Shown here: in pieces, positions 12,426 to 62,725 of the stretch | Numbering within the stretch: position 1 is the stretch's first letter | Layout of the letters: each line of letters opens with the position of its first letter | Virus record (IMG/VR): IMGVR_UViG_3300046648_000377 | Coordinates: 330 to 64,329 of that record | DNA from: a virus | Lineage: Duplodnaviria; Caudoviricetes | DNA: 64,000 nt | Reading direction: 5' to 3' (one strand) | The notes under the pieces: model-generated | The model's database searches: none | What the model was told of the DNA's origin: nothing | The model's input: only the letters and a program-made list of their open reading frames with translations | Translations under genes and position numbers: made by a program

Positions 12426-14044
12426 TACAGCGCCCTCCACGATCCATTGAGAAAGACCATCTGCTCGCCAGACTTCTGGTTGGTTACGAGCGGCAGGCCG
12501 ATCGCGCGTGCCTGCTGGCCACGCCAGTCAGCGATCTGTTTCGGCGAGACCTGGGTGCGGTCGGCTTCCGGCAGCAACGCCTGCGCCTTCGTGTGCTCTT
12601 CCATCTGCGTCTGGACGCCCTTGGTGAGCTGGTCGAGCACATCGTTCTCGCGACGCGTGCCCGAGTCGTCCTTGGTGACGGCCGCACGTGCCACGGATCC
12701 GTCGGGGAGCCGCGTGGGCGTGGCCACGCCGTTCGGCCCGATCTGTGCGATCGTGCCGTCGGACAAAGTGGTTTGCGGCAGCTGTCGGGTAAGCAGCGAT
12801 CGCGCGGCCTCGAGCGCACTCTGCTGCAGGCCATACTGCCCGCGTAAATTTTCGACAGCGAGCGCGCTGCCGCGCTGGGCCGCACCATTGGCCGCCTCAT
12901 TGTCGCCAGCCACGGCCTGTTCGCCGGCGCGGAGACTCCCAGCCAGCTGCGCACCGAGAGCACCAGCTGCTGCACGGCGGAGGCGCGGCGTGCCGGCGTA
13001 CTGGGCATCCATCCCCAGGTTGTTGGCGACGGTTCCGGCCGCACTCCGCCAGTCACCGCTGGCGATCGCATCGCGGTCAGACGCGGCGAACTGTGCGGCG
13101 GAGGGTCGGCTCCCCGTGATCGGGACGGCCGTAGGCTGGCGCAACGCGGCGGCCTGTTCCGACGAGGGCGTGTAGCCGAGCACATCGCTGGCGAGTGGAG
13201 CCTTGGGTGCGGGAGCCGTCTGCAGGCGCGCGCCGAGATTCTTGATGGTCTCGTCTGTCATCGTCCGCGGAATGCTTCCAGCAACGCCAGGAATGCCGCT
13301 GCTGCCGTCGCTGAAGGTCGGGACACCGTTGACCATGGCGCCGTACGGCAAATGACGGCCGTCGGCGGTCGTCACACCACCGTACACATCACTCGGGAGA
13401 TCACCCTTCGATGTTCCGAGGCCCGAGCTCTGCACGCCGGCGAGCGATGGCCGCTGCAGTGCCGCGCTCGGCGAGCTCGCAGCGCTCGGATCAAGCGGGC
13501 TGGTCGCTGGCGCAGTCGTGTCGACGCCGCCCGTCACTCCGGCAAACGACGCGCCAGCGCTGGGATTCCCGCCAGGCGCAGAGCCAGCTCCAGGAAATGG
13601 CCTGGACAACGGTGCCGCGGTTACACCCGGTAGCGGGTTGCCTGCGTTCGGCGATTCGGGATTGCCGGCGATACCGTTGTAGACATCGCGGGCGATCGGT
13701 GCCGCGTACCGCACAGGCGCAGTGAGCGTATTAACGACGCCGGTACCGACGTCGCGCCCCGCGTTGACCAGGTCGACGCCGCCATTGATTACGCTGCGGC
13801 CTTCGCCACCGATCGCACGGCCGACGCGCGTACCGATCGCGGCGTCGGGCGGAAGCGTGGGGTCGGGCTTGCTGGCAAGCGCGGCAATGGAGCGCGCATC
13901 AGATGCCTGCGCTCCGCCGAACACCAAGGGCGTTCGCGTGAGGGCGGGTGCCGAAGGAGCTGCCGGAGTAGGCACGCTGGAGCCAGCGGTGACGTCGTCG
14001 TCGGTAATCGGGCTGGGACGGCGGAGAAGCGAGGTCGTGGCCAT
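12425..14044 (-). CDS. putative internal virion/ejection protein
   Basis: 539-aa Ala/Gly/Pro-rich ORF directly upstream of the giant protein. Confidence 0.6.
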   Translation of the reverse strand: MATTSLLRRPSPITDDDVTAGSSVPTPAAPSAPALTRTPLVFGGAQASDARSIAALASKPDPTLPPDAAIGTRVGRAIGGEGRSVINGGVDLVNAGRDVGTGVVNTLTAPVRYAAPIARDVYNGIAGNPESPNAGNPLPGVTAAPLSRPFPGAGSAPGGNPSAGASFAGVTGGVDTTAPATSPLDPSAASSPSAALQRPSLAGVQSSGLGTSKGDLPSDVYGGVTTADGRHLPYGAMVNGVPTFSDGSSGIPGVAGSIPRTMTDETIKNLGARLQTAPAPKAPLASDVLGYTPSSEQAAALRQPTAVPITGSRPSAAQFAASDRDAIASGDWRSAAGTVANNLGMDAQYAGTPRLRRAAAGALGAQLAGSLRAGEQAVAGDNEAANGAAQRGSALAVENLRGQYGLQQSALEAARSLLTRQLPQTTLSDGTIAQIGPNGVATPTRLPDGSVARAAVTKDDSGTRRENDVLDQLTKGVQTQMEEHTKAQALLPEADRTQVSPKQIADWRGQQARAIGLPLVTNQKSGEQMVFLNGSWRAL

Positions 14045-19717: not shown

Positions 19718-20353
19718 TCAGTCGGTCAGGCTGACCTGGTAGCCGAGCGTGATCGTCTCGCCGTTGAACGCAGTGCGCGCGTTGTCGAACTTGGTGGCCG
19801 ACATTAAGACACCGGCAGTGCTCCCGCGCCCGTTATCGCTCAGCAGGCCGCAGCCGGTGATCGTGACGCTGGCTGCGGTGGCGAACGTGAAGGTCGCCTT
19901 GTTCGCATTGCTGTCGACCACGCCGGCGACAGGCGCGCCTGGGACCCACTGCGGGCGCGTCGGGCTGGTGTAGCCCTCGGATGTGCTGACGATTTCGCCC
20001 TGCGTCGCAGCGAAGCTGGCTGCGGTCAGGCCTGCCGCCGGAACGGCTGCGCCGTTGGTCAGCGCGAGGTAGAACTTCGGGAGCTTCGCCGCATCGGTTA
20101 GCGCGATGGCGAGGATCGTCGCGATGCCCTGGTCGGGGACGAGGTTGTGATCGAGGGTGAACTCGCTTTCGTGCTCGTTGAGGCGATGGAAGTATTCGCC
20201 GGCGACGCGAAGAGAGTCGGCGACGATGATCGCGCCACCCGAGATCCTGTACTTGCCGCCCAGGAGGCACTTGGCGAAGTGGAGCCGGTAGCGCTCGATT
20301 TCACGAGCGACGCGGCGCGTGGGGACGTGGATGAGCTGAAGTGGGTTGCGCAT
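19718..20353 (-). CDS. virion structural protein
   Basis: ATG 20353 after GAGGAAGG; HNLVPDQG and GVLMSATKF motifs typical of phage tail-associated proteins. Confidence 0.65.
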   Translation of the reverse strand: MRNPLQLIHVPTRRVAREIERYRLHFAKCLLGGKYRISGGAIIVADSLRVAGEYFHRLNEHESEFTLDHNLVPDQGIATILAIALTDAAKLPKFYLALTNGAAVPAAGLTAASFAATQGEIVSTSEGYTSPTRPQWVPGAPVAGVVDSNANKATFTFATAASVTITGCGLLSDNGRGSTAGVLMSATKFDNARTAFNGETITLGYQVSLTD

Positions 20354-20392
20354 GAGTGCCTTCCTCGTGAGGATGAAGGGCACTCATGCGCC
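20348..20392 (-). promoter_or_regulatory. leader RNA switch copy A (GGCGC-AUGA-GUGCC, alternatively a 13-bp stem over the start codon)
   Basis: 14-mer at 20379-20392; perfect inverted repeat with 20348-20360, which covers ATG 20353. Confidence 0.75.
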
Positions 20393-27070: not shown

Positions 27071-27484
27071 TCAGAGTTTGAAGATCTTGTTGGTGCCGTT
27101 GTCCCACGTGCAGATGATGTCGCCGCCGTTGGGGGTGATCGGCAGGCCGGTGGCCGTGTCGATGAACGCAATCAGGGGTGAGGTGCCTTCGGTACCGGTG
27201 TCCTTGAAGATCACCAGGGCCTCGATCGACGCACCGGTCACGGCGCTGAAGGTGATGTCCGCGGCATCGGCTGCACCGCCGGTGGTGGTCTTGCTGATAA
27301 GTGCGACGCCGCTCGACGTGCCGATGCGCGCCGACGTCGGGATGTCCGACAGGAACTGGTGGGTGGTGAAGTTGGCCGAGTACGAACCCGTGTCGACCAG
27401 GATGACCTTGATGGTGTCCGTCAGCCAATTGAACTGGCCCTCGAGGAAGCGCTGCCGACCGAAGTCGTAAAGGGTGTTTGCCAT
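27071..27484 (-). CDS. conserved virion structural protein (137 aa)
   Basis: MANTLY..DTIKVILVD..GLPITPNGGDIICTWDNGTNKIFKL, a common phage structural family. Confidence 0.8.
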   Translation of the reverse strand: MANTLYDFGRQRFLEGQFNWLTDTIKVILVDTGSYSANFTTHQFLSDIPTSARIGTSSGVALISKTTTGGAADAADITFSAVTGASIEALVIFKDTGTEGTSPLIAFIDTATGLPITPNGGDIICTWDNGTNKIFKL

Positions 27485-27547: not shown

Positions 27548-28234
27548 CTAGAAGGTCTGTACGTGCCTGACGCGAGGGGGGCTATCAGCCCAACGCGCCA
27601 TCGCCATCAGCGACGGCCGTGTGCCAAACCGTTGCTCGAACAGGCTGAGATGGGTACCCGACGCATCCTCTGCATTCGCGTCGGCATCCTTCTTGAGGTA
27701 TGCCTCATGGGCCACCCAGTGCCGAAGCTCCTCGATGTCTGGGATCTTGATCACTGGCTCGTCGGTATCGTTCACGAGCAGCTCGTCGCCGCGCGGTACG
27801 CGCCAGGCGCGAAGATGCAGGGTCATCGCCCGATCTGGGTTCGGCCAAAGCTGGATCGACTTCTGCGCAAGGTCCATCACCATGACCCTGGGCGTCCCGC
27901 TCTCGACACGGGCCTCATCCCAGCCGGGCTGAACCCGATCCATGTCGTACGACGCAAGCGCCCAAAGCTTGTGCGTCGCGCCGATGATCGATCCCGATCG
28001 CGGTACAAGGATCGAGCTGTCAAAGGACACGCGTCCGCCGGTGGCCGGATCGATCGCGATCACGCACGTCGCCGGATCCCCGACGGCGTCGACGTGAAGC
28101 AGGCGCGCACGGATGCAAACCTCGCGCACGGCGTTGTTGAGATACCGCGTCAGCTCCTCGTCGCTCCAGAGCTGAGGCTCGGCCTCGTCGTCGAGCATCG
28201 AGCGGATCACGGCAATGAAGTCGACGAGCTTCAT
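27548..28234 (-). CDS. head-tail adaptor protein
   Basis: LWSDEELTRYLNNAVREVCIR..WVAHEAYLKKDAD..FEQRFG. Confidence 0.75.
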   Translation of the reverse strand: MKLVDFIAVIRSMLDDEAEPQLWSDEELTRYLNNAVREVCIRARLLHVDAVGDPATCVIAIDPATGGRVSFDSSILVPRSGSIIGATHKLWALASYDMDRVQPGWDEARVESGTPRVMVMDLAQKSIQLWPNPDRAMTLHLRAWRVPRGDELLVNDTDEPVIKIPDIEELRHWVAHEAYLKKDADANAEDASGTHLSLFEQRFGTRPSLMAMARWADSPPRVRHVQTF

Positions 28235-45531: not shown

Positions 45532-45873
45532 CTACTGCGCCTCCGAGGGCTTGATTCCGTGCGGCAGGTAGCCGTCAGTGATCAGCTGCGCAGTTTCAGG
45601 GGCGACGCCAAAGGTCTTGGGGCGCAACCGATACCGAGTCACAAACCCTTCGACAGCCTCCTCCATGGGGATCACCTGGTCGGCCGGAACGCTCTTCCGC
45701 TTCCGCCACATGCTCACCTGGTGAGGCGGCACCCCGAGAGCCAGAGCCATCTTCGAGACGCCACCGATATGTTGAATCGCCAGATCAAGAGCTTGAAGGA
45801 CCAAGTCGGCAGCAGCGGCGTCAGCATCGGCGTCGGTGGGGCGAGGAGCCAGGTCAAGAGCAGTGAGGGTCAT
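45532..45873 (-). CDS. cro: Cro/YdaS-like HTH regulator
   Basis: GGVSKMALALGVPPHQVSMW..VPA..VTRYRLRP..FG; divergent from cI. Confidence 0.85.
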   Translation of the reverse strand: MTLTALDLAPRPTDADADAAAADLVLQALDLAIQHIGGVSKMALALGVPPHQVSMWRKRKSVPADQVIPMEEAVEGFVTRYRLRPKTFGVAPETAQLITDGYLPHGIKPSEAQ

Positions 45874-45879
45874 GCGCGC

Positions 45880-45908
45880 ATTGTCACGCAACGTGACATT
45901 CTAAGCAA
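45880..45908 (-). promoter_or_regulatory. PR promoter with operator TGTCACG-N3-CGTGACA
   Basis: TTGCTT-17-GACAAT; palindrome at 45882-45898; cro ATG lies 6 nt after the -10 box. Confidence 0.75.
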
Positions 45909-45966
45909 CACACTGGGAAACATGGGTGATGGCGGCTTCACCGCAAAGCGCGAACCATCCCGCCCC

Positions 45967-46617
45967 ATGGATCCTCATCTGCTCGGCGCACGAATCGCCA
46001 ACGCCCGAAAGAGCCTCAACCTGACTCAGGAGAGGCTCGCGGCCCACCTCGGCTACTCGTCGACCAGTCGCCTGGGCAACTACGAAAGCGGGAACCGCAT
46101 CCCTTCGCTTGCGGATCTCACCGAAATCGCCAAGGCACTTGGGTACACGCTCGACGTGCTTGTCGAAGGCGACGAGATCCTGGGCGAAGAGCGCGCACCG
46201 ACCATTCGCGGCGACATCCCTGGCCACGTGCAGATCGACCGATTGGCCGGGTTCGACAAGCACACTGGGCCAAACGAGCTCTACCTACCTGAATTCCTCG
46301 TTCGCCAGCGTGTGCCTCATGCGAACCTGAAGAACGTCCGCTGGATCCGAAATCCGACCACCGTGATGCGACCACGTATCCAACCGGGCGCCTTGGTGCT
46401 CGTAGACGTGAGTCACAGCGACCTGGACCAGGTCATGGATGGCGAGACATACGCTGTGCGCCTGTACGGTCGTCCCGACATCCGGCGGATCCAGCTCATG
46501 CCGGGCGATGAGTCCATCCGCCTGGTGGGCGATCGCGAAACAGACAACCGTTTCGAGCTGGCGCGCGCTGACTACTCGAAGCTCGAGATCGGCGGCCTAG
46601 TCATAGACTGCCTGTAA
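45967..46617 (+). CDS. cI: CI-like repressor (XRE HTH + catalytically degenerate S24 domain)
   Basis: LTQERLAAHLG..LGNYESGNRIPS; C-domain NPTTVMRPRIQPGALVLVD..DIRRIQ; alternative start 45922. Confidence 0.85.
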   Translation: MDPHLLGARIANARKSLNLTQERLAAHLGYSSTSRLGNYESGNRIPSLADLTEIAKALGYTLDVLVEGDEILGEERAPTIRGDIPGHVQIDRLAGFDKHTGPNELYLPEFLVRQRVPHANLKNVRWIRNPTTVMRPRIQPGALVLVDVSHSDLDQVMDGETYAVRLYGRPDIRRIQLMPGDESIRLVGDRETDNRFELARADYSKLEIGGLVIDCL

Positions 46618-46683: not shown

Positions 46684-48327
46684 ATGATTGACCGTGCAGT
46701 GGATGCTTGGGGCGCGCGCAGCGCATTGGCAAGGAAGGCCGCACGGGCTTTGAGTCACGTTGCCATTGCGGCGACCTATGCGCTTGCTTATCTGGCGCTT
46801 CGCGAGACGTCAAACGACCAGTGGTATCTGCCGGCTGGCCTTCGCTTCGTCATGTTACTCATCACCCCGACGCGATACTGGCCCGCGTTGTACGCCGGCG
46901 ACATCGTTGCGCTGGGCCTATTCCGCATTCCCATGATTCCGCGCGACGGTATCGCTTGGGTGACGGCCTCGGTCTTCCCGGTGTGGCCCGCCGTAGCCGC
47001 GGTCGTGTACCAGCTTCGGAAGAAGTCGGCGCTCCCGCACATTCGCACGGCCATGGACGCCGGCTGGTTCGTCATCGCCGCACTGATTGCTGCAGAGCTG
47101 CCAAGCTTTCTCAACAAGGCATGCTCTGCCCTTCTGAGGCACAGCGCCGGCGCGATGAAGTTCTCGGACCTCTTCGTCTACACGATGGGCCACCTGCAGG
47201 GGATCCTGCTCTTCTCGTTCGTCGCTATCTGCATTTTCGGCAAATGCGTGGATCCACGGCGCGAGCGCATGCTCCGGATCGATGCCGGGGTCACTATCGT
47301 GCTTTCGCTCATCCTCGCTGCAGCCATCTCCGCCGCCACCGCCACTAGCGCCGATACGAACCTCATCCAGGGCATGCGCATGCTGTTGCTGGTTCCGGCC
47401 GTCGCGATGTCGGTCCGCTTTGGCTACCGGGGCGCGTGTGTCGGTGCTGTGGCATCCAACGTGGCGCTCTTCTTGACCATCCCTCACCAAGACGCCGGTC
47501 TCAGCGACCCGGGCGCGCTGGTGATGCAAGAGGCCTTCGCCCTGATCGCCTGCTCCATGTTCGTGCTCGGCGCCCGGATCTACGAGCGAATGCATGAGGC
47601 AACAGGGGCGAGCAACGCCGAGCGCGCGGCACGCCACCTGGCCAAGGCCAGCTTCGACTCGAGCGAATCGCTCATGCGCGAACGCGCCATTCGGGCCGAG
47701 GAGCTCCAGACGAGCAGCCGCACGGCCATGCAGTCGACGATTAAGTGGCTCAGGGCACAGGGCCATTCCGAGGTCGCCATGGGCTTGGTGGGTATCGCCC
47801 ACAGCCAAGCCGCGGCCTTTCAACAGATCATCGTCGACGCCCTTTACCCACTCACGCTCGAGCGCGACGGCCTTTACGCGGCGCTGAACTCGGAGGCGTT
47901 TCACCTACAGTTCGACATGGCATCCGTGGAGTGCAATCTCGACCTCCTGGGCTCGGCCCAGGATCTCCCGATCGCGACCCAGCGCGCTGTATACCGCGTG
48001 ATCGGCGAGTCGGTGGACTATCTGCTCGCCTCGATTCCCACAAGCATGCAGATCCGCGTACGCTGCACGACCCGCAATGGGCGTGGCCACGTAAGCATCG
48101 CTCTCTACGCTCGCGATCCAGCAGTGACCACGAGGTCGTCGGTAGACACTGCTCGCCTGGCCGGCCTTCGCACGCGCGCCATGGCCTACGAGGGATCGTT
48201 TCACAATAAGCCGCACCGTATCCGGGTCATCCTCCTGGACGAGGCGATGGAACGGCACGGGATACCAACGCTGCGAGGGCACGTCACCCGAAGAGCTCAA
48301 CGCGCTCAAAAAGAAAAGGCCCCGTGA
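46684..48327 (+). CDS. MASE1-domain membrane sensor with degenerate UhpB-like HisKA_3/HATPase
   Basis: QWYLPAGLRF..P.RYWP and multiple TMs; LYPLTLERDGL, VYRVIGESV, LAGLRTRA. Confidence 0.85.
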   Translation: MIDRAVDAWGARSALARKAARALSHVAIAATYALAYLALRETSNDQWYLPAGLRFVMLLITPTRYWPALYAGDIVALGLFRIPMIPRDGIAWVTASVFPVWPAVAAVVYQLRKKSALPHIRTAMDAGWFVIAALIAAELPSFLNKACSALLRHSAGAMKFSDLFVYTMGHLQGILLFSFVAICIFGKCVDPRRERMLRIDAGVTIVLSLILAAAISAATATSADTNLIQGMRMLLLVPAVAMSVRFGYRGACVGAVASNVALFLTIPHQDAGLSDPGALVMQEAFALIACSMFVLGARIYERMHEATGASNAERAARHLAKASFDSSESLMRERAIRAEELQTSSRTAMQSTIKWLRAQGHSEVAMGLVGIAHSQAAAFQQIIVDALYPLTLERDGLYAALNSEAFHLQFDMASVECNLDLLGSAQDLPIATQRAVYRVIGESVDYLLASIPTSMQIRVRCTTRNGRGHVSIALYARDPAVTTRSSVDTARLAGLRTRAMAYEGSFHNKPHRIRVILLDEAMERHGIPTLRGHVTRRAQRAQKEKAP

Positions 48328-48342
48328 GGGGCCTTTTCGTTT
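48313..48342. terminator. bidirectional intrinsic terminator
   Basis: GAAAAGGCCCC-GTGA-GGGGCCTTTTC between convergent genes. Confidence 0.85.
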
Positions 48343-48357
48343 CTAGAGCTCGAAGCC

Positions 48358-48850: not shown

Positions 48851-48925
48851 AGTCACGCAGCGTGACTGGCTGACTTGCCCTAAATGTCACGTTCCGTGAC
48901 TATGTCGGTGTCACGGGATGAAACA
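48851..48925 (+). promoter_or_regulatory. PL promoter with three operators
   Basis: AGTCACG-N3-CGTGACT at 48851-48867, TGTCACG-N3-CGTGACT at 48885-48901, degenerate copy at 48909-48925; TTGCCC-17-GACTAT. Confidence 0.75.
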
Positions 48926-49989: not shown

Positions 49990-50216
49990 GCCGCGTCCGC
50001 AAGTCGCCCGAACAGCTGCAGCGTGAATGCGACCGATTCAACCAGCGATGCGCGGTCGGTGCGCCGGTTGTTGTCACGCGTGACAACGGCGACCAGTTCC
50101 GGTCGACCACCACGACACATGCGCAGGTCCTGGGTAGCCACAGCGCAGTGATCTGGGTACAGGACGGCCGTAGCTGCCTTCTGCTCGACCGCGTCGAGCC
50201 GGCCATCAGCGCATGA
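49986..50216 (+). CDS. hypothetical protein
   Basis: ATGA overlap; FNQRCAVGAPV..AQVLGSHSAVIWV. Confidence 0.65.
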   Translation: MSRVRKSPEQLQRECDRFNQRCAVGAPVVVTRDNGDQFRSTTTTHAQVLGSHSAVIWVQDGRSCLLLDRVEPAISA

Positions 50217-50611
50217 GCTGCCTCGCCATCACCGAGCTTTCCGTTTCCGAGCAGGCTGAGTTAACCCTTGCGGTAATCGCCAGGGCAGCCGAGGTGCTCG
50301 CCACTTTCGATCCGCGGGTCCCCGGGTTCTCCCCCCTGTCCACCGCAACTCGCCCCCGCGGGTCGAATCTTCCTCCGCAGGAGGCTTCACGCATGATCGA
50401 GCGCCAGCTTCAGAACCACCCGCCGTTGCGCGTGTGCAACTGCATCCGCCGGCCACACATGTACGAGGCCCGAGGGAACAACGCCGTGCGCTTCTACGTG
50501 GAATGCGCGCCGTGCGAGATCCGCACGCCGAGGGTCTCCACGGCCGACGCTGCAGCTGAAGCCTGGAACGCCCGCGACCTGGTCCCGCTCAACGTCCAGG
50601 CGGTGGCGTGA
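50213..50611 (+). CDS. Zn-ribbon protein, Lar-like C-terminus
   Basis: LRVCNC..VECAPC..AAEAWN resembles the Lar/Ral restriction-alleviation family. Confidence 0.55.
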   Translation: MSCLAITELSVSEQAELTLAVIARAAEVLATFDPRVPGFSPLSTATRPRGSNLPPQEASRMIERQLQNHPPLRVCNCIRRPHMYEARGNNAVRFYVECAPCEIRTPRVSTADAAAEAWNARDLVPLNVQAVA

Positions 50612-50895: not shown

Positions 50896-51276
50896 ATGCC
50901 CACTTCCGCCCTTACCCCCGCCAACGTCACCGCGACCATCAGCGAAGCCGCTGAGAAGCTGCGCGAAGCGGGCAATCAAGATCTCGCCGGCCGTCTCATC
51001 CTCGCCGGCGCCAGCGTCTCGATCGGAAACGACAGCGCCGTGGTGCAGGCGCTGGTAAGCGCTCTCGTGCACGAGTGCCGCGCCGCCTCCGCGATCCTCC
51101 AGGCCACCTTGGCGGTCATGACGACGGAGCAGAAGAACGACCTCGCGAAACGCGTCGACGAGCGTGGATTCATCGGCAAGGAGGGTGGCGCGACCAGGCA
51201 CTGGGACCGCAACGAAGTCGTCGCCCGTGCCGAATGTTTCCTCTACGTCACCAACAAACCCGGCGTCCTTCACTGA
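50896..51276 (+). CDS. hypothetical protein
   Basis: GGAG RBS. Confidence 0.65.
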   Translation: MPTSALTPANVTATISEAAEKLREAGNQDLAGRLILAGASVSIGNDSAVVQALVSALVHECRAASAILQATLAVMTTEQKNDLAKRVDERGFIGKEGGATRHWDRNEVVARAECFLYVTNKPGVLH

Positions 51277-51306
51277 CGCCACCTACCCGCACGCCCCGGA
51301 GATCCC

Positions 51307-51609
51307 ATGAATGCAGTAGCAGCTTCGACCCGCCTTCCAAGTCACTCACCCGCTCCTTTGGCCGCGGTACCCGCCGCAATCGAATCGCTCGGGGGCAGCC
51401 TGTCCTACCTCCAGGATCGTCTCGCCGTCCTGCGCACGCGACTCGAACCGGTGCTCGCACCGCCTGACGTCGCCGGTCAGACCGCGAGCAAGAGCGTGGG
51501 CGATTCGCGTTACCTCGTCGCGGTCGCCGATCAGGTAAGCGATCACGACGCCATCGTGCGCAGCCTCTCGGCGACTGTCGACGATCTCATCCAGCGCGCA
51601 GCGCTTTGA
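51307..51609 (+). CDS. hypothetical coiled-coil protein
   Basis: GGAG RBS. Confidence 0.6.
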   Translation: MNAVAASTRLPSHSPAPLAAVPAAIESLGGSLSYLQDRLAVLRTRLEPVLAPPDVAGQTASKSVGDSRYLVAVADQVSDHDAIVRSLSATVDDLIQRAAL

Positions 51610-53524: not shown

Positions 53525-55705
53525 ATGACCACCATCGAATTCGACGACGAGATCTACTGGGTTCCCTACTCGCAGCTGCGCGTGTCCGACAAGAACGTAC
53601 GTAAGAAGCGCGATCCGAAGGAACTCCAGATTCCCCAGCTGGCGGCGCAGATCAAGGCCGAGACGTTGCTGCAGAACCTGGTCACCACGTTCGGCGAGGG
53701 CGGCAAGTTCGTCGTGGTGAATGGGAAGAAGACGCCGAAGGGACCGCTCGAGATCGTCGACGGATATCGTCGTTACCTCTCCATCGGCATGAATGCGGCT
53801 GAGCTGTTGCTGGATCTCGACCAGCTCGTTCCCGTCAAGATCCGCCCGCCCGACCACGCTGTGTCCGCCAGCCTGACGGCGGCCTTTGGCCAGCTCCCCC
53901 TTCATCCGGTAGAGCAGTTCGACGCGTTCAAGGCCCTCGTTGACGAAGGGAAGTCTGTGGTCGACATCGCCGCCGCCTTCGGCCTCGTGGAGAAGGCGGT
54001 CAGCCAGCGCTTGCTATTGGCGAAGGTCGCGCCCCAGATCCTGAAGGCCTTTCGAGAGGAAGAGATCTCGCTCGAAGTCCTGCAGGCGTTCACGGTCAAC
54101 GATGACCAGAAGCGCCAGCTGAAGGCGTTTCAGGGAATTCCATCCTATCTAAGCGACGCCCAGGCAGCGAAGCACGTACGCACGCACCTTACCGACAAGG
54201 AAATGTCGCTGCGAAACGAGCCTCTCGCGCGCCTGGTCGGCGTGGAGGCCTACCAGGCGGCAGGCGGGCAGGTTCGCTCTGACCTGTTCAACGAAGACAC
54301 TTACTTCGCGGACCCTGCCCTTATCCGCAAGCTTGCCAACGATCGCGTTGCCGAGCTCGAACCGCGTGTTCGCTCCGAGGGCTGGTCATGGGTCGAGGTG
54401 AAGCTGGAAAGGGTGCCGCTTTATGCATTCGCACAACGCAAACCCAAGGTGGCGCAGACCACGCCCGAACAAGATAGGGAACTGGCTTCGATCAAGACGA
54501 AACTCGCGTCGGTCGGGAAGAGAATCGCAAAGCTTCGCCAAGACGAACCTGATGACGATGAATCCCCCGAATACGCAGCGTGGCTTGCCACGTACGAAGG
54601 TCCGCGCGCTGAGCACCAGGAGCTGACTGAACGAGAAGAGCAGATTCAGGCCGATCGTTCGACGTGGAGTGCGAGGACGCTGAAAGAAGCGGGCGTGGTG
54701 ATCTGCCTCGATCATGAGGGAAACCTCAAGATCAATCGCGGCCTCGTCGACCCGAAGACGATGAAGCGCATCGAGAAAGAGAAAAAGAAGGCCGCGGCTG
54801 TTACGGCCGGCGGCCCTGTCGAGACCGTCGAAATCTCCGACTCGCTGCACCAACGCCTCACTGCGCACCGCTCCGCCGTAATCCGCCGCAAGCTGCAGCT
54901 CGACCTGAAGGCGATGCTTGCCGTGCTTGCTCATTCGTTGACGGGGCACACGTTCGGCCGCTCGAACTGGAAGGCCAACCTGACGGAGATTGGTGCGCCC
55001 CCGCAGGACAAGGCACACGCCACCGCCGGCGTCGACATGGACGAGTACGTTTCCCACCTCAACCTGTCGCTAGACCGTAGCGAGCTGATCCGGGAAATGC
55101 CGGAAGACGAGAAAGACGCCCTCGTTTGGTTGTTGGAGCAGAGCGAGGACTACCTGCTGAAGCTGATTTCGGCCTGCGTGGCCACGTCCTTCAACGGGAT
55201 CTACGGGAAATCAGGGTGGAAGGTTCCCGAGCGTCACGCTCTCACTGAGGTGCTCGTTGAGTACCTCGATATCGATATGCGCGAGCATTGGCAGGCCACG
55301 GTCAACACGTACCTTGGCCACGTTCCCAAGCCGTTGATCATCCAGGCGGTGACAGAAGCGAAGGGTGCTGCTGCCGCCAAGGATCTCACGACGATGCCGA
55401 AGGGCGCCGCAGCCGAGGCGGCGGAGTTACACCTCGACGACGAAGAATGGGTACCCGAGCTTTTTCGCCGAGTGCTGACTAAGCCCAAGGAGATCTCACA
55501 AGAGGAGGCTGTCGCACACATCCACTCCCTCCTTGAGGCGAAGCGGGCGCGCGACTCGCAGCCGTCGTCATGGCCCGCAACTCCCGAGGCGTCGCCGATC
55601 GCCGACCAGGCGAAGCCGATCCTGAAGGCGCCTCCTGTGACGAAGGTGGCCGGGAAGAAGGCTGCTGTGAAGAAGGTCGCTGGGAAGAAGGCAGCGAAGG
55701 CATGA
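53525..55705 (+). CDS. ParB/RepB/Spo0J-family protein (long plasmid-like type)
   Basis: LLQNLV..VDGYRRY, LHPVEQFDAF HTH, YQAAGG.VRSDLF, EGWSWVE; histone-like KKVAGKKAA tail. Confidence 0.85.
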   Translation: MTTIEFDDEIYWVPYSQLRVSDKNVRKKRDPKELQIPQLAAQIKAETLLQNLVTTFGEGGKFVVVNGKKTPKGPLEIVDGYRRYLSIGMNAAELLLDLDQLVPVKIRPPDHAVSASLTAAFGQLPLHPVEQFDAFKALVDEGKSVVDIAAAFGLVEKAVSQRLLLAKVAPQILKAFREEEISLEVLQAFTVNDDQKRQLKAFQGIPSYLSDAQAAKHVRTHLTDKEMSLRNEPLARLVGVEAYQAAGGQVRSDLFNEDTYFADPALIRKLANDRVAELEPRVRSEGWSWVEVKLERVPLYAFAQRKPKVAQTTPEQDRELASIKTKLASVGKRIAKLRQDEPDDDESPEYAAWLATYEGPRAEHQELTEREEQIQADRSTWSARTLKEAGVVICLDHEGNLKINRGLVDPKTMKRIEKEKKKAAAVTAGGPVETVEISDSLHQRLTAHRSAVIRRKLQLDLKAMLAVLAHSLTGHTFGRSNWKANLTEIGAPPQDKAHATAGVDMDEYVSHLNLSLDRSELIREMPEDEKDALVWLLEQSEDYLLKLISACVATSFNGIYGKSGWKVPERHALTEVLVEYLDIDMREHWQATVNTYLGHVPKPLIIQAVTEAKGAAAAKDLTTMPKGAAAEAAELHLDDEEWVPELFRRVLTKPKEISQEEAVAHIHSLLEAKRARDSQPSSWPATPEASPIADQAKPILKAPPVTKVAGKKAAVKKVAGKKAAKA

Positions 55706-56253
55706 GCTACGCGAGCTTCCTCTTCGCCCCGTTTGCTCGCCGCGCTCGCGAGAGCTGGCCGACGTGCGGCTTCAACCTCTGGCTGGTTGCGGGGACGTTG
55801 TCGCCGACACCGGTCGACAGCGTCGAGCTTGTCGACTTCGATGTGATCAGTCGGCCTGAGCCGATCCTGGGCCGAGTCATCGTGGACGGGCGTGCGGCGG
55901 ACGGGGACGACGTCCTTTTCAGCAGCATCCCTGAGGGCCGCACCGTTCGCGCCCTCCTGATTACCGAACTGCGGACGAATGAGGGCTCACCCGGGGCCAT
56001 GGGCCTGGAGACGCCCGCCGCACTGGTCTGGCAGGCGCATGGCATGCCCCTCGATACCAACGGCGGCGACATCATTGTCACTTGGGATAACGGTCCGAAC
56101 CGCATATTTTCGCTACCGAAAGCCAGTGCAGCCCCGTTGGCGGTCGAAGATTGGGTCACAGATCTGTTGTCGACGTGCGGCGACCAAGCGCTCGGTCAGG
56201 CGATTACCGCTCCGCTGCTTCTCCCTGAGCGCAAGGGCGAGGTTCGGGCATGA
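55702..56253 (+). CDS. early-operon paralog of virion protein 27071-27484
   Basis: GMPLDTNGGDIIVTWDNGPNRIFSL vs GLPITPNGGDIICTWDNGTNKIFKL. Confidence 0.75.
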   Translation: MSYASFLFAPFARRARESWPTCGFNLWLVAGTLSPTPVDSVELVDFDVISRPEPILGRVIVDGRAADGDDVLFSSIPEGRTVRALLITELRTNEGSPGAMGLETPAALVWQAHGMPLDTNGGDIIVTWDNGPNRIFSLPKASAAPLAVEDWVTDLLSTCGDQALGQAITAPLLLPERKGEVRA

Positions 56254-56882
56254 CGATCCCTGCCTACCCCCTCGTGTGGCCAGACGGATGGCCACGCCTA
56301 TCGTCTCACAGCCGTGCGGCGGCCAAGTTCGGAACGGTGCGTAGCGGCAGCGCGAAGCGCCAGCTCAGCGTGGCGGATGCCGTCGCGCGCGTGCGCGATG
56401 AATTGGGTCGCATGGGAGTGTCTGACGACGACCTGGTCGTCAGTACGAATATGCCGCTTCGCCTCGATGGTTGGCCGCGCTCGGACTCTGCAGCGCCGTC
56501 CGATCCCGGTGCCGCTGTCTACTGGCGCGAACCGAAGAATCGCGACAAGCCCGCTCGCTGCATGGCGATCGACCGCTATGAACGTGTTGCGGACAACCTT
56601 GCGGCGATCGCCGCAACACTCGAAGCATTCCGCGCGATCGAGCGACATGGCGGCGCCGCCATCCTGGACCGAGCTTTCACCGGCTTCGTAGCGATCGAGA
56701 ACCAGTCGAAGCCCTGGCCCCAGGTTCTCGGGGTTCAACCCGGCGCCAGCAACGACGAGGTTCTTGAGGCGTACCGCCGGCGGCGTGCTGCGACTCATCC
56801 CGATCGTGACGGTGGCGATGCCGAAGCCTTCCAGCGCGTGCAGGAAGCCTACGAGACCTTCAGCAAGGAACGCGGGCTGTGA
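56250..56882 (+). CDS. J-domain (DnaJ-like) protein
   Basis: AYPLVWPDGWPR N-domain; C-terminal VLGV..AYR..HPD..GG..F..VQEAY. Confidence 0.9.
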   Translation: MTIPAYPLVWPDGWPRLSSHSRAAAKFGTVRSGSAKRQLSVADAVARVRDELGRMGVSDDDLVVSTNMPLRLDGWPRSDSAAPSDPGAAVYWREPKNRDKPARCMAIDRYERVADNLAAIAATLEAFRAIERHGGAAILDRAFTGFVAIENQSKPWPQVLGVQPGASNDEVLEAYRRRRAATHPDRDGGDAEAFQRVQEAYETFSKERGL

Positions 56883-57283
56883 CCGACGAGACGACACCGA
56901 CACCGGAGCCGAAGAAGTTCAGCGGCGGTCTCCGGATGGCGAAAGCCACGCCCGAAGACATCGAGAACGCCTTCGAGCTGGCCAGCTTGCTTGACCAGGT
57001 CGAGCGAGGCGACTGGCCGTACCTTGGCGATGAAGAACCCGAAGACGCTCCAGAACGTATCGACGACCAGGACATCGAGCACCTTCAGCATGTCTACGAG
57101 CTGGTCAAGACGATGGCTCGCCGCGGCGGTTTGTGGCGCGTCGTCATGGGCTTCGACATGGTCCTGCGCAGCGATCTGCTGAATCCCGCGGTGGATTACA
57201 TCGAGGTGAACCCGGTCATCAATGCGCTCGTGGACAAGTCGAACGCCACAGACGCCGCGGCGGAGCAGGAGCCCAGCACGTGA
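56879..57283 (+). CDS. hypothetical protein
   Basis: LRMAKATPEDIE..GGLWRVVMG. Confidence 0.7.
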   Translation: MTDETTPTPEPKKFSGGLRMAKATPEDIENAFELASLLDQVERGDWPYLGDEEPEDAPERIDDQDIEHLQHVYELVKTMARRGGLWRVVMGFDMVLRSDLLNPAVDYIEVNPVINALVDKSNATDAAAEQEPST

Positions 57284-57572: not shown

Positions 57573-58037
57573 ATGACCGTGCTCGACATCCTTGAACAGA
57601 AATGCCGCGTCTGCGGCTGCACCGAAATGCGGGCCTGCAAGGGCGGATGTCACTGGGTCACACCCGATCTCTGCAGCGCCTGCCAGGTCGACGAAGGCGA
57701 TGCCCTCGTCTTCGTCGAAAATAACGCCGGCGCTATGCGCATCGCCCGTGAGCGCCTGCGCCAGCTCGCCGAAGAGAACTACACGGTCGAGGGGGACCTT
57801 TCATACGTCACCGGCGAGCTGGCAGCAGCTGCGTGCTGCTACGCCATGCCCATGTATCTGCGCGAAATGGACGGCTTGAACATGTGGCTGCTATGGCCTT
57901 GGGGATCGGCCAGCTGGAAGCCCGCGCCTTCGCCCGTGACAACGGAGGGCCGCCTCCGCGAGCTTGCGAAGGCCGGCGCTCTTATCGCGGCCGAAATCGA
58001 TCGCTTGCTCGCCGCGGAGCCATCCCATGACGAGTGA
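57573..58037 (+). CDS. Zn-finger + MazG-like helical domain protein
   Basis: CRVCGCTE.RAC.GGC.WV..DLCSAC; ERLRQ..GELAAAACCY..WPW..WKP..KAGALIAAEIDR. Confidence 0.7.
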   Translation: MTVLDILEQKCRVCGCTEMRACKGGCHWVTPDLCSACQVDEGDALVFVENNAGAMRIARERLRQLAEENYTVEGDLSYVTGELAAAACCYAMPMYLREMDGLNMWLLWPWGSASWKPAPSPVTTEGRLRELAKAGALIAAEIDRLLAAEPSHDE

Positions 58038-58437
58038 AGAGAAGCTCTTCGACCCGGCCCGTATGCCAGCGCGCGACGACGAGGGCAAGGCCTGGCACCC
58101 AGACTTCGACGACCGCTGGGAGCACCCCGTTTTCGGGGAAGAGTACGTCTGCACGCTGAAGCTCGCACAGGCCGGATTCGCCTTCGCCTTCCATCACATG
58201 GATCCAAACGACGCGGACTTTGACAGGGCCTGCGAGAACAGCGACTTCTCGATGTGGACGCCGCGCGATATGTCGGCCGAGGGCTGGTGGATCGTCGGCA
58301 TCGGCGACACCGAGGACGGTCCTTGCGCCTGGTACGTCCGTCCGGTCGAGGGCGAGGCCCAAGCCGCGCTTATCGCCAGGGAGCGCGAAGCGCTCGACAA
58401 GCTGCAGGACCCGCGCTCCAACACGGGGCATCACTGA
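58027..58437 (+). CDS. hypothetical protein
   Basis: WHPD..W.P..GWWIVGIGDTEDGP small phage family. Confidence 0.7.
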   Translation: MTSEEKLFDPARMPARDDEGKAWHPDFDDRWEHPVFGEEYVCTLKLAQAGFAFAFHHMDPNDADFDRACENSDFSMWTPRDMSAEGWWIVGIGDTEDGPCAWYVRPVEGEAQAALIAREREALDKLQDPRSNTGHH

Positions 58438-58439
58438 CT

Positions 58440-59341
58440 ATGGATACCTCGATCATGCCCATCAAATCGTTCCAGATCGGCGTCTCCCAGTGGCTGATTG
58501 ACTGCCTCGGCGTCGACTGCGCCATGGATACGCACGAGCGGAATCACCGCTTTCTCGAAGAGGCCCTCGAACTCGTGCAGTCAAAGGGCTGCACCGCGTC
58601 CGAAGCGCACCAGCTCGTCGACTACGTATTCAACCGGCCTGTCGGTGAGCCGTCCAGGAAGTGGGTGGCGTCATGGTCACCCTCGCCGCCCTCTGCACTG
58701 CCGCGGACATCGACCTGGCTACCTCCGCCGACGACGAACTGCGCCGGATCTGGACGAAGGTCCCCGAGATTCGCGCCAAGCATGCCGCCAAGCCGAAGCA
58801 CTCCCCGCTGCCGGATACCGCCACCAATGACTGGGGCCGTCAGGACATGCGCAAGGCTTTCCAGGGACTGGCGCGTGCCACCCCGTCCGGCGCGAAGGTC
58901 ATGGGCGTTGATTGGGCTGATGGCGTTGACACGACCGTTTACGGCCGCGTCGACAGTAAGGGAATCACCTATATCGACGCGATCGAACAGGTGGTCTGGC
59001 AGCCGATGACAACCGCTCCCCGCGACGGCAGCGTGGTCATCCTGCGCTGGGGCGATGATGGTGAAACTGTCGCCTGGTACGTCGCCGACTCAGAGTTTCC
59101 CTGGGGCTTCGTCGACACGGGTTCATCGGCGAACGAGGCCGGCTACTTCATCAACCATGCGAAGGACGCCCCGGAGGGTGCGACACACTGGCGTCCGTTC
59201 ACCCGCGACACCAGCCGCCTTCTGGCGATCTCGCGCGGCATCGGTCTGCGCGAAGTCATGCACGGCATTCGCGCTACCGAAGCCAGGCAGCTTCTCGCAG
59301 CGTTCTTCTACGTTGCTTATCGGGAGGAGATCAGTGGCTGA
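58440..59341 (+). pseudogene. MazG-like + DUF551-like protein with 1-nt frameshift
   Basis: ERNHRFLEEALELVQ..RPVGEP continues as QEVGGVMVTLAALC in another frame at ~58654. Confidence 0.75.
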
Positions 59342-61397: not shown

Positions 61398-61613
61398 GTG
61401 ATAAATGGCTGCCTCACAACCGAAGAACTGCAGTCTTGGAGCGGCTACGACCGCCCAGCGGACCTGCGCCACTGGCTTGATCAGCAGGGCATTCGGTACT
61501 TCCGTGGGAAAGGAGGCAAGCCGTGCACGACGATGGCGCTGGTAAACGCGGCCGCAGGCCTGGCACTGACCGTGGGCGAGCAGCCGACGATGCTCGGCGC
61601 GGACGACCTCTAG
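61398..61613 (+). CDS. DUF4224 excisionase-like protein
   Basis: LTTEELQSWSGY..WL.QQGIRYF.G..GKP.TT directly before the integrase; start uncertain. Confidence 0.75.
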   Translation: MINGCLTTEELQSWSGYDRPADLRHWLDQQGIRYFRGKGGKPCTTMALVNAAAGLALTVGEQPTMLGADDL

Positions 61614-62725
61614 TGGGTCGGGGACGGCCGCGCCAGCGGGACCTGACGATCCCTGCCCACATCGACCAGCTCAGCATCCCCCGCGGGGTGTACTGGAAGG
61701 CGAAGGATCGTGTCTGGTACACGCTGGTGAGCCAGGGCGAGGGCAAGCAGTCCTGGAAGCGGCTCGGTGGTCCGGAGGCGACCCTCGCGGATCTACAGGC
61801 GAGCCTCGAGGCTACGCGTGGCGTCGATCGCGCGAGCCTCGGCTGGTTGTGCGACGAGTTCCACGGCAGCGACCAATTCAAGCGTCTGGCCGAGAAGACC
61901 CGCGAGGACTATGACGCCCAGCGGAAGATCATCGCTACGTACCAGACGAAGCGGGGCATGCTGCAGGACCTCCCTTATGCCTCGCTCACGCCTGTCTTCG
62001 TTCAGAAGCTGATCGACACCATCGGCTCGGAATACCCTTCGAAAGCGAACCATGTCCTGCGCTACGTGCGTCGGGTCTACTCCTGGGGTCGGACGCGACG
62101 GGGATGCAAAACGAACCCGGCCAAGGGCGTCGAGCAGGCAGTCGAGCGTAAGCAACAGCGGCTACCGAAGGAGCACGCCTACATGGCGTTGCTCAACCAT
62201 GCGAAGGCGAATTACCCGGCGTACCTGTGGATCGCGACGGAACTCGCCTTCCTAATGCGACTGCGTGGTATCGAGACGGTCACGCTCGACGACACGTACG
62301 TCCTCGAGGAGGGCATGCTCACCAACCGCAGGAAGGGATCGGCAGACAGCGTGATCGAGTGGTCGCCCCGGCTTCGCGAGGCGGTGCGTGCCGCCGGTGC
62401 CGAGCGCTCGCGGATCTGGTCGAAGAAGAAGATGCCGACGCCGCTGGACCCGCGCCAGCGTCCGATCCTCGTCAACATCCATGGGAAACCGGTGAGCCGG
62501 CACACGCTCAGCACCCTGTGGCAGACGTGCATCAAGGACGCGATCCAGAAGGGGCTTATCTCCCCGGACGACCGTTTCGCGATCCACGACGCGAAGCGCA
62601 AGGGCGTGACGGAAACCGTCGGCGACAAAGCGGCCAAGAAGGCAGGCAGCGGCCACAAGTCCGATTCGATGCTGGGCGTCTACGACAAGAGCATTCCCCG
62701 CGTCAGTACCCCAGGGAGCGTCTGA
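61613..62725 (+). CDS. int: tyrosine integrase
   Basis: LMRLRGIE (R), RRKGS (K), HDAKRK, GHKS..VY; adjacent to att. Confidence 0.92.
   Translation: MGRGRPRQRDLTIPAHIDQLSIPRGVYWKAKDRVWYTLVSQGEGKQSWKRLGGPEATLADLQASLEATRGVDRASLGWLCDEFHGSDQFKRLAEKTREDYDAQRKIIATYQTKRGMLQDLPYASLTPVFVQKLIDTIGSEYPSKANHVLRYVRRVYSWGRTRRGCKTNPAKGVEQAVERKQQRLPKEHAYMALLNHAKANYPAYLWIATELAFLMRLRGIETVTLDDTYVLEEGMLTNRRKGSADSVIEWSPRLREAVRAAGAERSRIWSKKKMPTPLDPRQRPILVNIHGKPVSRHTLSTLWQTCIKDAIQKGLISPDDRFAIHDAKRKGVTETVGDKAAKKAGSGHKSDSMLGVYDKSIPRVSTPGSV

Follow-up and report, generated by a model that had tools for sequence, protein, structure and literature searches.

A diverged paralogue of a small phage tail-appendage protein encoded between ParB-like and J-domain genes in a putative early operon

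Genes for virion proteins are, to our knowledge, almost always single-copy and late, and a second version of one of them among the accessory genes of a phage raises the question of what such a protein might do there. This question is posed by a stretch of 64,000 nucleotides (hereafter the window) that corresponds to positions 330 to 64,329 of IMGVR_UViG_3300046648_000377, a provirus record in IMG/VR that is 64,329 bases long and has 64% G+C, from a member of the Caudoviricetes. At 55702-56253 on its forward strand the window carries an open reading frame (ORF) of 183 amino acids (aa), P0001, lying between genes for a ParB-like and a J-domain protein; the same protein is also recorded on a contig of 2.6 Mb. 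A preliminary description made from the letters of the sequence had taken it for a diverged copy of the virion structural gene at 27071-27484 on the reverse strand, which encodes the 137-aa protein P0002. Comparative analysis of the two proteins and their relatives indicates that P0001 is a genuine paralogue of the small tail-appendage protein of this phage, that it is old and selectively maintained, and that its clade is a separate and rare one. For its function we tentatively prefer a role as a diverged second subunit in the assembly of the tail wing arm.

The relationship between the two proteins was recovered by three kinds of comparison. BLASTP aligned residues 63-138 of P0001 with residues 69-137 of P0002 at 42% identity over 76 aa (E 3e-15), a hidden Markov model (HMM) made from late-type sequences alone recovered P0001 with an E-value of 1.1e-25 over residues 17-138, and an hhalign comparison of the early-clade profile (see below) with the late profile extended the match to 135 columns, pairing residues 3-144 of P0001 with residues 1-137 of P0002 (99.9% probability, E 1.4e-31). 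The similarity thus spans the whole domain and is far above chance. The likeness proposed in the preliminary description is borne out by all three comparisons, and the three pairs of motifs that it quoted are all found in the two translations. Its other structural statements also hold: P0001 consists of a domain (residues 1-138) followed by a non-conserved tail (residues 139-183), the latter measuring 45 aa where an extension of about that length had been claimed, and the two genes lie 28.2 kb apart on opposite strands.

Both proteins belong to phrog_644, a family annotated in PHROG as of unknown function, which was matched by P0002 with E 5.7e-47 and by P0001 with E 4.6e-5. No Pfam model matched either protein, none matched six early-type proteins at E-values up to 10, and searches of P0001 against PADLOC, Pfam and NCBIfam found nothing. 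The only solved relative is chain Ra of PDB entry 9D93, the 'Tail wing arm, gp31' of mycobacteriophage Bxb1, which was detected with P0002 (E 4.5e-14) as well as with the family profile (E 2.7e-14). An AlphaFold model of P0001, computed from a 69-sequence alignment, has a mean pLDDT of 83 and is mostly confident over residues 1-140, in which all ten-residue blocks score 89-98 bar three (77 for residues 1-10, 71 for 31-40 and 70 for 91-100), with the tail rendered as two low-confidence helices at residues 148-169. A Foldseek search with this model returned 9d93_Ra as the top PDB match (probability 1.00, target-normalised TM 0.69, 104 columns, E 2.4e-2), and P0001 is accordingly modelled as sharing the fold of gp31; in BFVD the model matched small uncharacterised viral proteins, with E-values down to 2.4e-7. 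The family is common among the phage and prophage sequences searched. In GenBank phages tblastn located it in 56 records, at one place in each and with no second copy, and among the matches listed four of 40 bore the annotation minor tail subunit or putative minor tail subunit. Its sole functional anchor is one structure obtained by cryo-electron microscopy.

Two further assignments were considered and rejected. A likeness to the CW_7 repeat of Cpl-7 (5i8l) reached an E-value of 8.7e-5 in phmmer only by the summing of three near-identical repeats, a single repeat scoring E 0.46; given the above-mentioned failure of the six early-type proteins to match Pfam at E-values up to 10, membership in CW_7 was judged to be a chance likeness. 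Similarly, a link to gp80 of podophage GP4 (PF23140), offered by the ESM Atlas with a score of 0.86, was rejected, as PF23140 rings only on a different gene of the window, that at 19718-20383 on the reverse strand. This gene matches the model of the GP4 fibre I protein at 19745-20062 (26.1 bits against a cut-off of 27) as well as phrog_8123 (E 9e-49), and probably encodes the chain-fibre monomer of the phage, separate from the phrog_644 gene.

The conservation pattern of P0001 divides it into a preserved interior and altered ends. By column counts on an alignment, both motifs of the family, GAADxxDxxF and GLPxxxNGGDxxxxWDxG, are present in P0001, and eighteen internal columns are conserved in the early and late sets alike. 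These columns fall mainly within the two motifs and include G63, D67, D70 and F73 as well as A112, G114, L/M115, P116, N120, G121, G122, D123, W128, D129, G131 and I135. At the termini the features of the canonical protein, namely an N-terminal MANxLY..R and a C-terminus lying two residues past a conserved I-F, are not found in P0001: an FLFxxF segment replaces the late-specific MANxLY..R, and the chain runs 45 aa past the canonical end.

Among the 69 family members placed in a maximum-likelihood tree, P0001 groups with P0003, P0038, P0040, P0118 and P0041 in what we term the early clade (support 98/89, and 97/80 in a second tree), with P0067 branching beside it as its sister. P0002 lies in the other half of the tree, and P0001 is hence not a recent duplicate of it. 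An all-length search of 1.84 billion cluster representatives at E-values up to 0.001 returned 82 proteins. Four of these are repetitive, with 6 to 11 matched stretches, and were set aside as spurious, P0047 and P0049 upon inspection and P0039 and P0044 by the same pattern alone; the other hits are mostly of 130-150 aa. When 57 of these other hits were aligned, all bar P0067 grouped away from the early clade in the tree. The early type is rare, amounting to six clusters at 50% identity, P0067 counted, among the 1.84 billion representatives. Its genomic distribution is equally narrow. With early-type loci defined by a better score to the early than to the late protein and by ParB-like or J-domain neighbours, only the window and one IMG/VR contig, G001 (loci L087 and L158), were recognised among the 238 loci listed by the family scans, and 46 further loci, 43 of them from species-representative genomes, were all late-type. 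Neither P0003, P0038 and P0040/P0118 nor P0067 appeared among the loci listed by the metagenome scan; IMG/VR scans with P0040 and P0067 returned nothing, and that with P0038 returned late-type loci only. For P0003 and P0038 we infer an early context only from C-terminal ends that resemble that of P0001.

Several features of this clade bear on whether the gene is still under selection. Its members are 33-51% identical to P0001 and differ by 49-67%, the frame is open in all of them, and 15 columns, including the core motifs, are invariant among the five aligned early sequences, one of which is a C-terminal fragment. For the two alleles available as DNA, those of the window and of G001, the proportion of nonsynonymous differences (pN) is 0.41 and that of synonymous differences (pS) 0.80, the latter being saturated, such that the comparison gives no proper ratio of the corresponding rates (dN/dS). 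As pN is half of pS, the P0001 gene is constrained, and the decay (dN/dS near 1) which the preliminary description had named as the outcome contrary to its interpretation was not seen. Taken with its placement in the tree, this pattern indicates that P0001 is an old and selectively maintained member of a rare clade of its own.

Diverged second copies have also arisen elsewhere in the family. Two matches were found at 7 of the 291 loci with a family match, and these were counted as three distinct elements: L030, the element of genome G006 (loci L040, L121, L329, L368 and L370), and L345. In the G006 element the second copy is situated in the late module between an adaptor-like gene and the canonical copy, to which it is adjacent (1489-1890 and 868-1317 on the reverse strand of locus L370); the copies of L345 lie at 5239-5652 and 4686-5198 on the forward strand. 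Additionally, three proteins of the representative set, P0082, P0088 and P0107, each consist of two full domains fused together. In the diverged copies, as in the early clade, the N-terminal MANxLY..R is altered and the chain continues past the canonical C-terminus; the partner copies retain the canonical form, and the two internal motifs are for the most part preserved.

The genomic settings of P0001 and P0002 are quite distinct. P0002 is encoded in a structural module with PHROG matches to a terminase large subunit, a portal, a major head protein, phrog_399, a tail protein and the head closure protein Hc3. It lies directly downstream of the phrog_399 structural gene (27548-28234, reverse strand), the usual upstream neighbour of the late copy, whose product shows a weak match to chain T of PDB entry 26fb (E 8e-4), an entry cited for the portal-adaptor complex and nozzle-base in the paper on podophage A1002 (PMC13730344). 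P0001, by contrast, falls outside the late tail-gene module and shares the strand of a CI-like repressor (45559-46617) and an integrase (61523-62725). The ParB-like gene (53525-55705, forward strand) encodes a protein of 726 aa belonging to phrog_7783, and the J-domain gene (56250-56882, forward strand) one of 210 aa belonging to phrog_9210, with PF00226 at residues 158-207. As the preliminary description had reported, P0001 is lodged tightly between them, with four-nucleotide ATGA overlaps at both junctions: the start of P0001 (55702) lies within the ParB-like gene, which ends at 55705, and that of the J-domain gene (56250) within P0001, which ends at 56253. Further upstream on the same strand is a gene for a Lar-like restriction-alleviation protein (50213-50611; PF14354 with E 1.3e-4, which is below the cut-off, and phrog_599 with E 7.8e-6). 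The assignment of P0001 to an early operon, also made in the preliminary description, stands in so far as the repressor, Lar-like, ParB-like, J-domain and integrase genes of the forward strand speak for it, and 'early accessory operon' seems a reasonable designation for such a gene content.

Regulatory elements were also noticed in this region. The CI-like repressor gene is followed by an uncharacterised gene of 547 aa (46684-48327) and then by a strong hairpin with a run of T (48302-48349). Two copies of an operator-like inverted repeat, TGTCACG..CGTGACA, were seen, the first at 45879-45900 and the second at 48883-48904, the latter lying shortly ahead of the accessory operon. The position of P0001 downstream of both the terminator-like hairpin and the second operator-like repeat suggests that it might be repressed in the lysogen. 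A search of sequencing runs for this region listed three DNA runs, one of them possibly its source, and no RNA run.

The G001 contig is a fragment of 36,231 bases from a sister phage that shows about 95-100% protein identity to the window over most shared genes. Measured in a sliding 150-column frame, nucleotide identity between the two stands at 99-100% in the interval 50.7-53.5 kb and falls abruptly at the ParB-like start codon, to 43-76% across this gene and to a minimum of 23-46% across P0001. Beyond P0001 it recovers over the J-domain gene and the gene after it, and has regained 98% by about 57.16 kb. The resulting divergent island (53525-57160, forward strand) encompasses the ParB-like/P0001/J-domain cassette, with the ParB-like gene as its left part. 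The corresponding protein identities are 56-58% for the ParB-like protein, 37-41% for the paralogue and 68-70% for the J-domain protein, and they return to 93% for the product of the next gene (56879-57283) and 96% for that of the gene after it (57964-58437). Both alleles preserve the order of the three genes and the two ATGA overlaps, as well as the frame and motifs of the paralogue. Given that synonymous sites are saturated for the paralogue and strongly diverged in the genes on either side, the island looks like an old allele brought in by recombination rather than the outcome of fast evolution in place. The paralogue thus appears to be exchanged between near-identical phages as a cassette together with the ParB-like gene. 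As for G001, its sequence ends some 1.3 kb before the site at which a late copy would lie. A megablast search of GenBank phages with the 53-58 kb region gave no match, and the surroundings of the cassette showed no conspicuous family of parS-like repeats.

Other differences between the two phages lie away from this cassette. Further divergent islands are seen at 58732-59320, 51225-51450 and 12.2-14.0 kb. The virion-gene strand includes a giant ORF (3228-12440, reverse; 3070 aa) that is 96% identical in the sister contig, with lower identity at about 4.4-5.6 kb, where overlapping frames lie. The integrase end of the window (61.6-64.0 kb) and its first 1.1 kb are replaced in G001 by about 1.8 kb of unrelated DNA, within a segment at 10.4-12.3 kb of that contig which joins the equivalents of 61.6 kb and 1.1 kb of the window; hence its integration module differs from that of the window.

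What, then, might P0001 do? The reading that we favour, while holding it only tentatively, is that it takes part in wing-arm assembly as a diverged second ('type II') subunit. This is a plainer alternative to the three mechanisms of the preliminary description (poisoning of assembly, a decoy for sensors and an assembly timer), among which it does not figure. As the conserved loops, G-A-A-D-x-x-D-x-x-F and G-L-P-x-x-x-N-G-G-D-x-x-x-x-W-D-x-G, are kept, P0001 probably binds what the canonical protein binds, be it a partner or a ligand, and this partner could be the canonical subunit itself or its docking site. With its changed ends P0001 would pair or dock otherwise than the canonical subunit, and it might be either built into the virion or modulate or cap its assembly. 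A heterotypic second subunit is the simplest mechanism in that diverged second copies and fused double domains recur in virion modules of this family. If this were the case, the composition of the virion would be set partly from outside the late operon. Other observations weigh against it. P0001 lies outside the late module, on the repressor and integrase strand and among accessory genes; it forms a swapped cassette with the ParB-like gene, a linkage that makes a role outside the virion possible; and the length of the C-terminal tail is not conserved, ranging from about 6-8 to 45 aa. Moreover, BLAST bit scores put the early clade mostly nearer to the canonical proteins than to the late tandem second copies, and it groups with two tandem copies at a support of only 90/84 with a long-branch warning, such that its 'type II' likeness may be parallel or convergent instead of inherited. 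The presumed wing-arm role is itself carried over to a podovirus-like phage from that of gp31 in the Bxb1 study (PMC12646305). A complex prediction for P0002 with P0001 scored 0.02 against a mark of 0.32, and counts neither for nor against binding.

A possible, if doubtful, alternative is that P0001 is a structural mimic made early, with its binding loops kept and its ends disabled, which either caps the appendage assembly of rival phages or soaks up a factor that targets the tail protein. Should this be so, the diverged alleles of near-identical phages would be specificity types of an arms race. In its first form, which corresponds to the dominant-negative decoy of the preliminary description and which we consider unlikely, early-made P0001 would take the docking partner, or pair with the subunits, of a related phage and block the appendage through its altered ends, with the assembly of its own phage escaping by timing, dose or allele specificity. 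The retention of the family loops alongside change at both termini fits such an action, as does the fact that identity between phages that are otherwise 99-100% identical is lowest exactly over P0001, in the manner of an interface in conflict. The presence of the Lar-like restriction-alleviation gene in the same operon points in the same direction, and there are precedents both for blocking of tail assembly, by Tab (PMC10884400) and Tai (PMC11364771), and for interference by a homologue of a structural protein, Ccm of SaPIbov5 (PMC8569155). The saturation of synonymous sites across the cassette, however, fits less well, being the mark of a swapped-in old allele instead of fast evolution in place. 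The same is true of the absence of visible self-protection, for the late copy of the phage has the same loops and self-poisoning would have to be avoided, yet no counter-measure gene was identified. Blocking the appendage would also be a weak weapon if the dispensability of Bxb1 gene 30 (PMC12646305) holds here too. Tab, moreover, is described in the abstract of its paper as being expressed constitutively from the prophage (PMC10884400), whereas P0001 lies downstream of the terminator-like hairpin and the operator-like repeat.

The association with the ParB-like and J-domain genes raises a different prospect, namely that P0001 has been exapted as a non-virion adaptor or client that links the ParB-like DNA-binding protein to the host DnaK by means of the phage J-domain protein. 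Consistent with this, the ParB-like gene and the paralogue are exchanged together, with the edge of the island sharp at the ParB-like start and recovery gradual through the J-domain gene, and the order of the three genes and both overlaps are kept in both alleles. In the early-type N-terminus, moreover, basic residues flank a hydrophobic FLFxxF core, a segment which we take to resemble a DnaK-binding peptide. Broader surveys of the neighbourhood speak otherwise. The J-domain protein (phrog_9210) is widespread and recurs as a conserved anchor of many phage contigs; it was found at 80 IMG/VR loci (L239-L318), and in only one of these, that of the sister phage, is there a member of the phrog_644 family within 4 kb, the J-domain gene being to this extent independent of the paralogue. 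The gene upstream of it is hypervariable, the largest similarity cluster among the 80 upstream ORFs having 4 members. Genome G002 has a ParB-like homologue (40% identity) on the same contig as a late copy 90% identical to P0002, but there the ParB-like homologue is followed by an unrelated ORF; in the five genomes searched, G002 included, neither a J-domain homologue nor an early-type copy was found, and a scan of IMG/VR with a ParB profile returned the sister phage alone. None of the 82 proteins from the all-length search shows a fusion to a ParB or J domain, and four-base overlaps are ordinary in packed phage operons. By gene-neighbourhood comparison the paralogue is a rare occupant of a variable slot, tied more tightly to the ParB-like than to the J-domain gene, and we regard the proposed DnaK-directed role as improbable.

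The second form of the mimic, also foreseen in the preliminary description, is a decoy against defence, whereby a tail-protein mimic made early would bind and saturate a defence protein, of the host or of a prophage, by which the canonical tail protein is sensed or blocked. The putative early timing, the kept surface motifs and the accessory-gene neighbourhood would all suit this role, and counter-defence proteins that act in the lytic cycle against tail-assembly blockers are described in two papers (PMC10884400, PMC11364771). On the other hand, the gene is rare, with its six clusters at 50% identity and its absence from 43 loci of species-representative genomes, and it has no PADLOC matches, the 2023 library of which covers defence systems and not counter-defence proteins and predates the papers on Tab and Tai (2024). 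We also know of no defence system that targets the phrog_644 family, and overall we consider this role highly unlikely. Finally, the notion that P0001 is a functionless relic of a captured late gene, open only by virtue of its position in a packed operon, is very unlikely, for although it is the least conserved gene of the operon (37-41% aa identity to G001), has a variable C-terminal tail and is missing in nearly all relatives, its pN is well below its pS, the frame is open throughout a clade with 15 invariant columns that include two core motifs, and clade members that differ by 49-67% in protein nevertheless are confidently predicted to fold onto the family.

Comparison with characterised systems helps to place these possibilities; the literature search covered the structural role of the family and analogues that block assembly, and none of it was aimed at early-encoded paralogues of the phrog_644 family. 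The only solved relative is gp31 of Bxb1, which resembles P0002 in sequence and the model of P0001 in fold, is similarly small and is encoded among tail genes, but has no counterpart of the N-terminal 28 or so residues seen in the proteobacterial family. According to the Bxb1 study (PMC12646305), the tail wing base gp30 carries both gp31 and gp33, neither of which is attached directly to another tail protein; deletion of gene 30 is tolerated at the cost of a modest growth defect, gp31 is believed to need gp30 for its assembly, and a related phage has no homologues of genes 30, 31 and 33. The differences in setting are considerable: Bxb1 is a siphovirus in which gp31 is carried by gp30, whereas P0001 comes from the putative early accessory operon of a podovirus-like temperate phage. 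Likewise, members of phrog_644 with visible context belong to late modules, as opposed to the early module of P0001. A tail-appendage gene has in this case founded a separate, selected lineage among putatively early accessory genes.

For a second subunit a structural parallel is offered by podophage A1002, the chain-like fibres of which are described as dimers of gp40 and gp41, two proteins that adopt a very similar fold at a sequence similarity of 16% (PMC13730344). These proteins, as well as gp80 of GP4 and gp11 of VP1, are small proteins of about 140-170 aa that form dimers docked on a carrier protein. The occurrence of two diverged fibre proteins in one virion of A1002 (PMC13730344) recalls the tandem paralogues and fused double domains of the phrog_644 family. 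It is nonetheless an analogy only, as the paralogues of A1002 are adjacent late genes and P0001 and P0002 have no Pfam match.

On the side of conflict, Tab and Tai, which belong to prophages and satellites, block the tail assembly of phages while the assembly of their own element is protected by a counter-measure (PMC10884400, PMC11364771). They differ from P0001 in that the abstracts of these papers make no mention of homology to the structural proteins that they block, and in that no paired counter-defence gene is evident at P0001. Ccm of SaPIbov5 comes nearer to a decoy, being a diverged homologue of a virion protein which redirects the assembly of the helper capsid (PMC8569155). In contrast to P0001 it is encoded by a satellite, derives from a capsid and not a tail protein, and has no sequence relation to P0001. 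If P0001 were a decoy, it would represent a structural-protein mimic encoded by a phage and used in conflict, for which the nearest citable case, Ccm, is that of a satellite. Either way P0001, with 183 aa and a known canonical partner gene, constitutes a small and tractable test case. The family and its virion role were already known from one structure, and the present comparison adds to them a separate and selectively maintained lineage in the putative early region of a phage genome.

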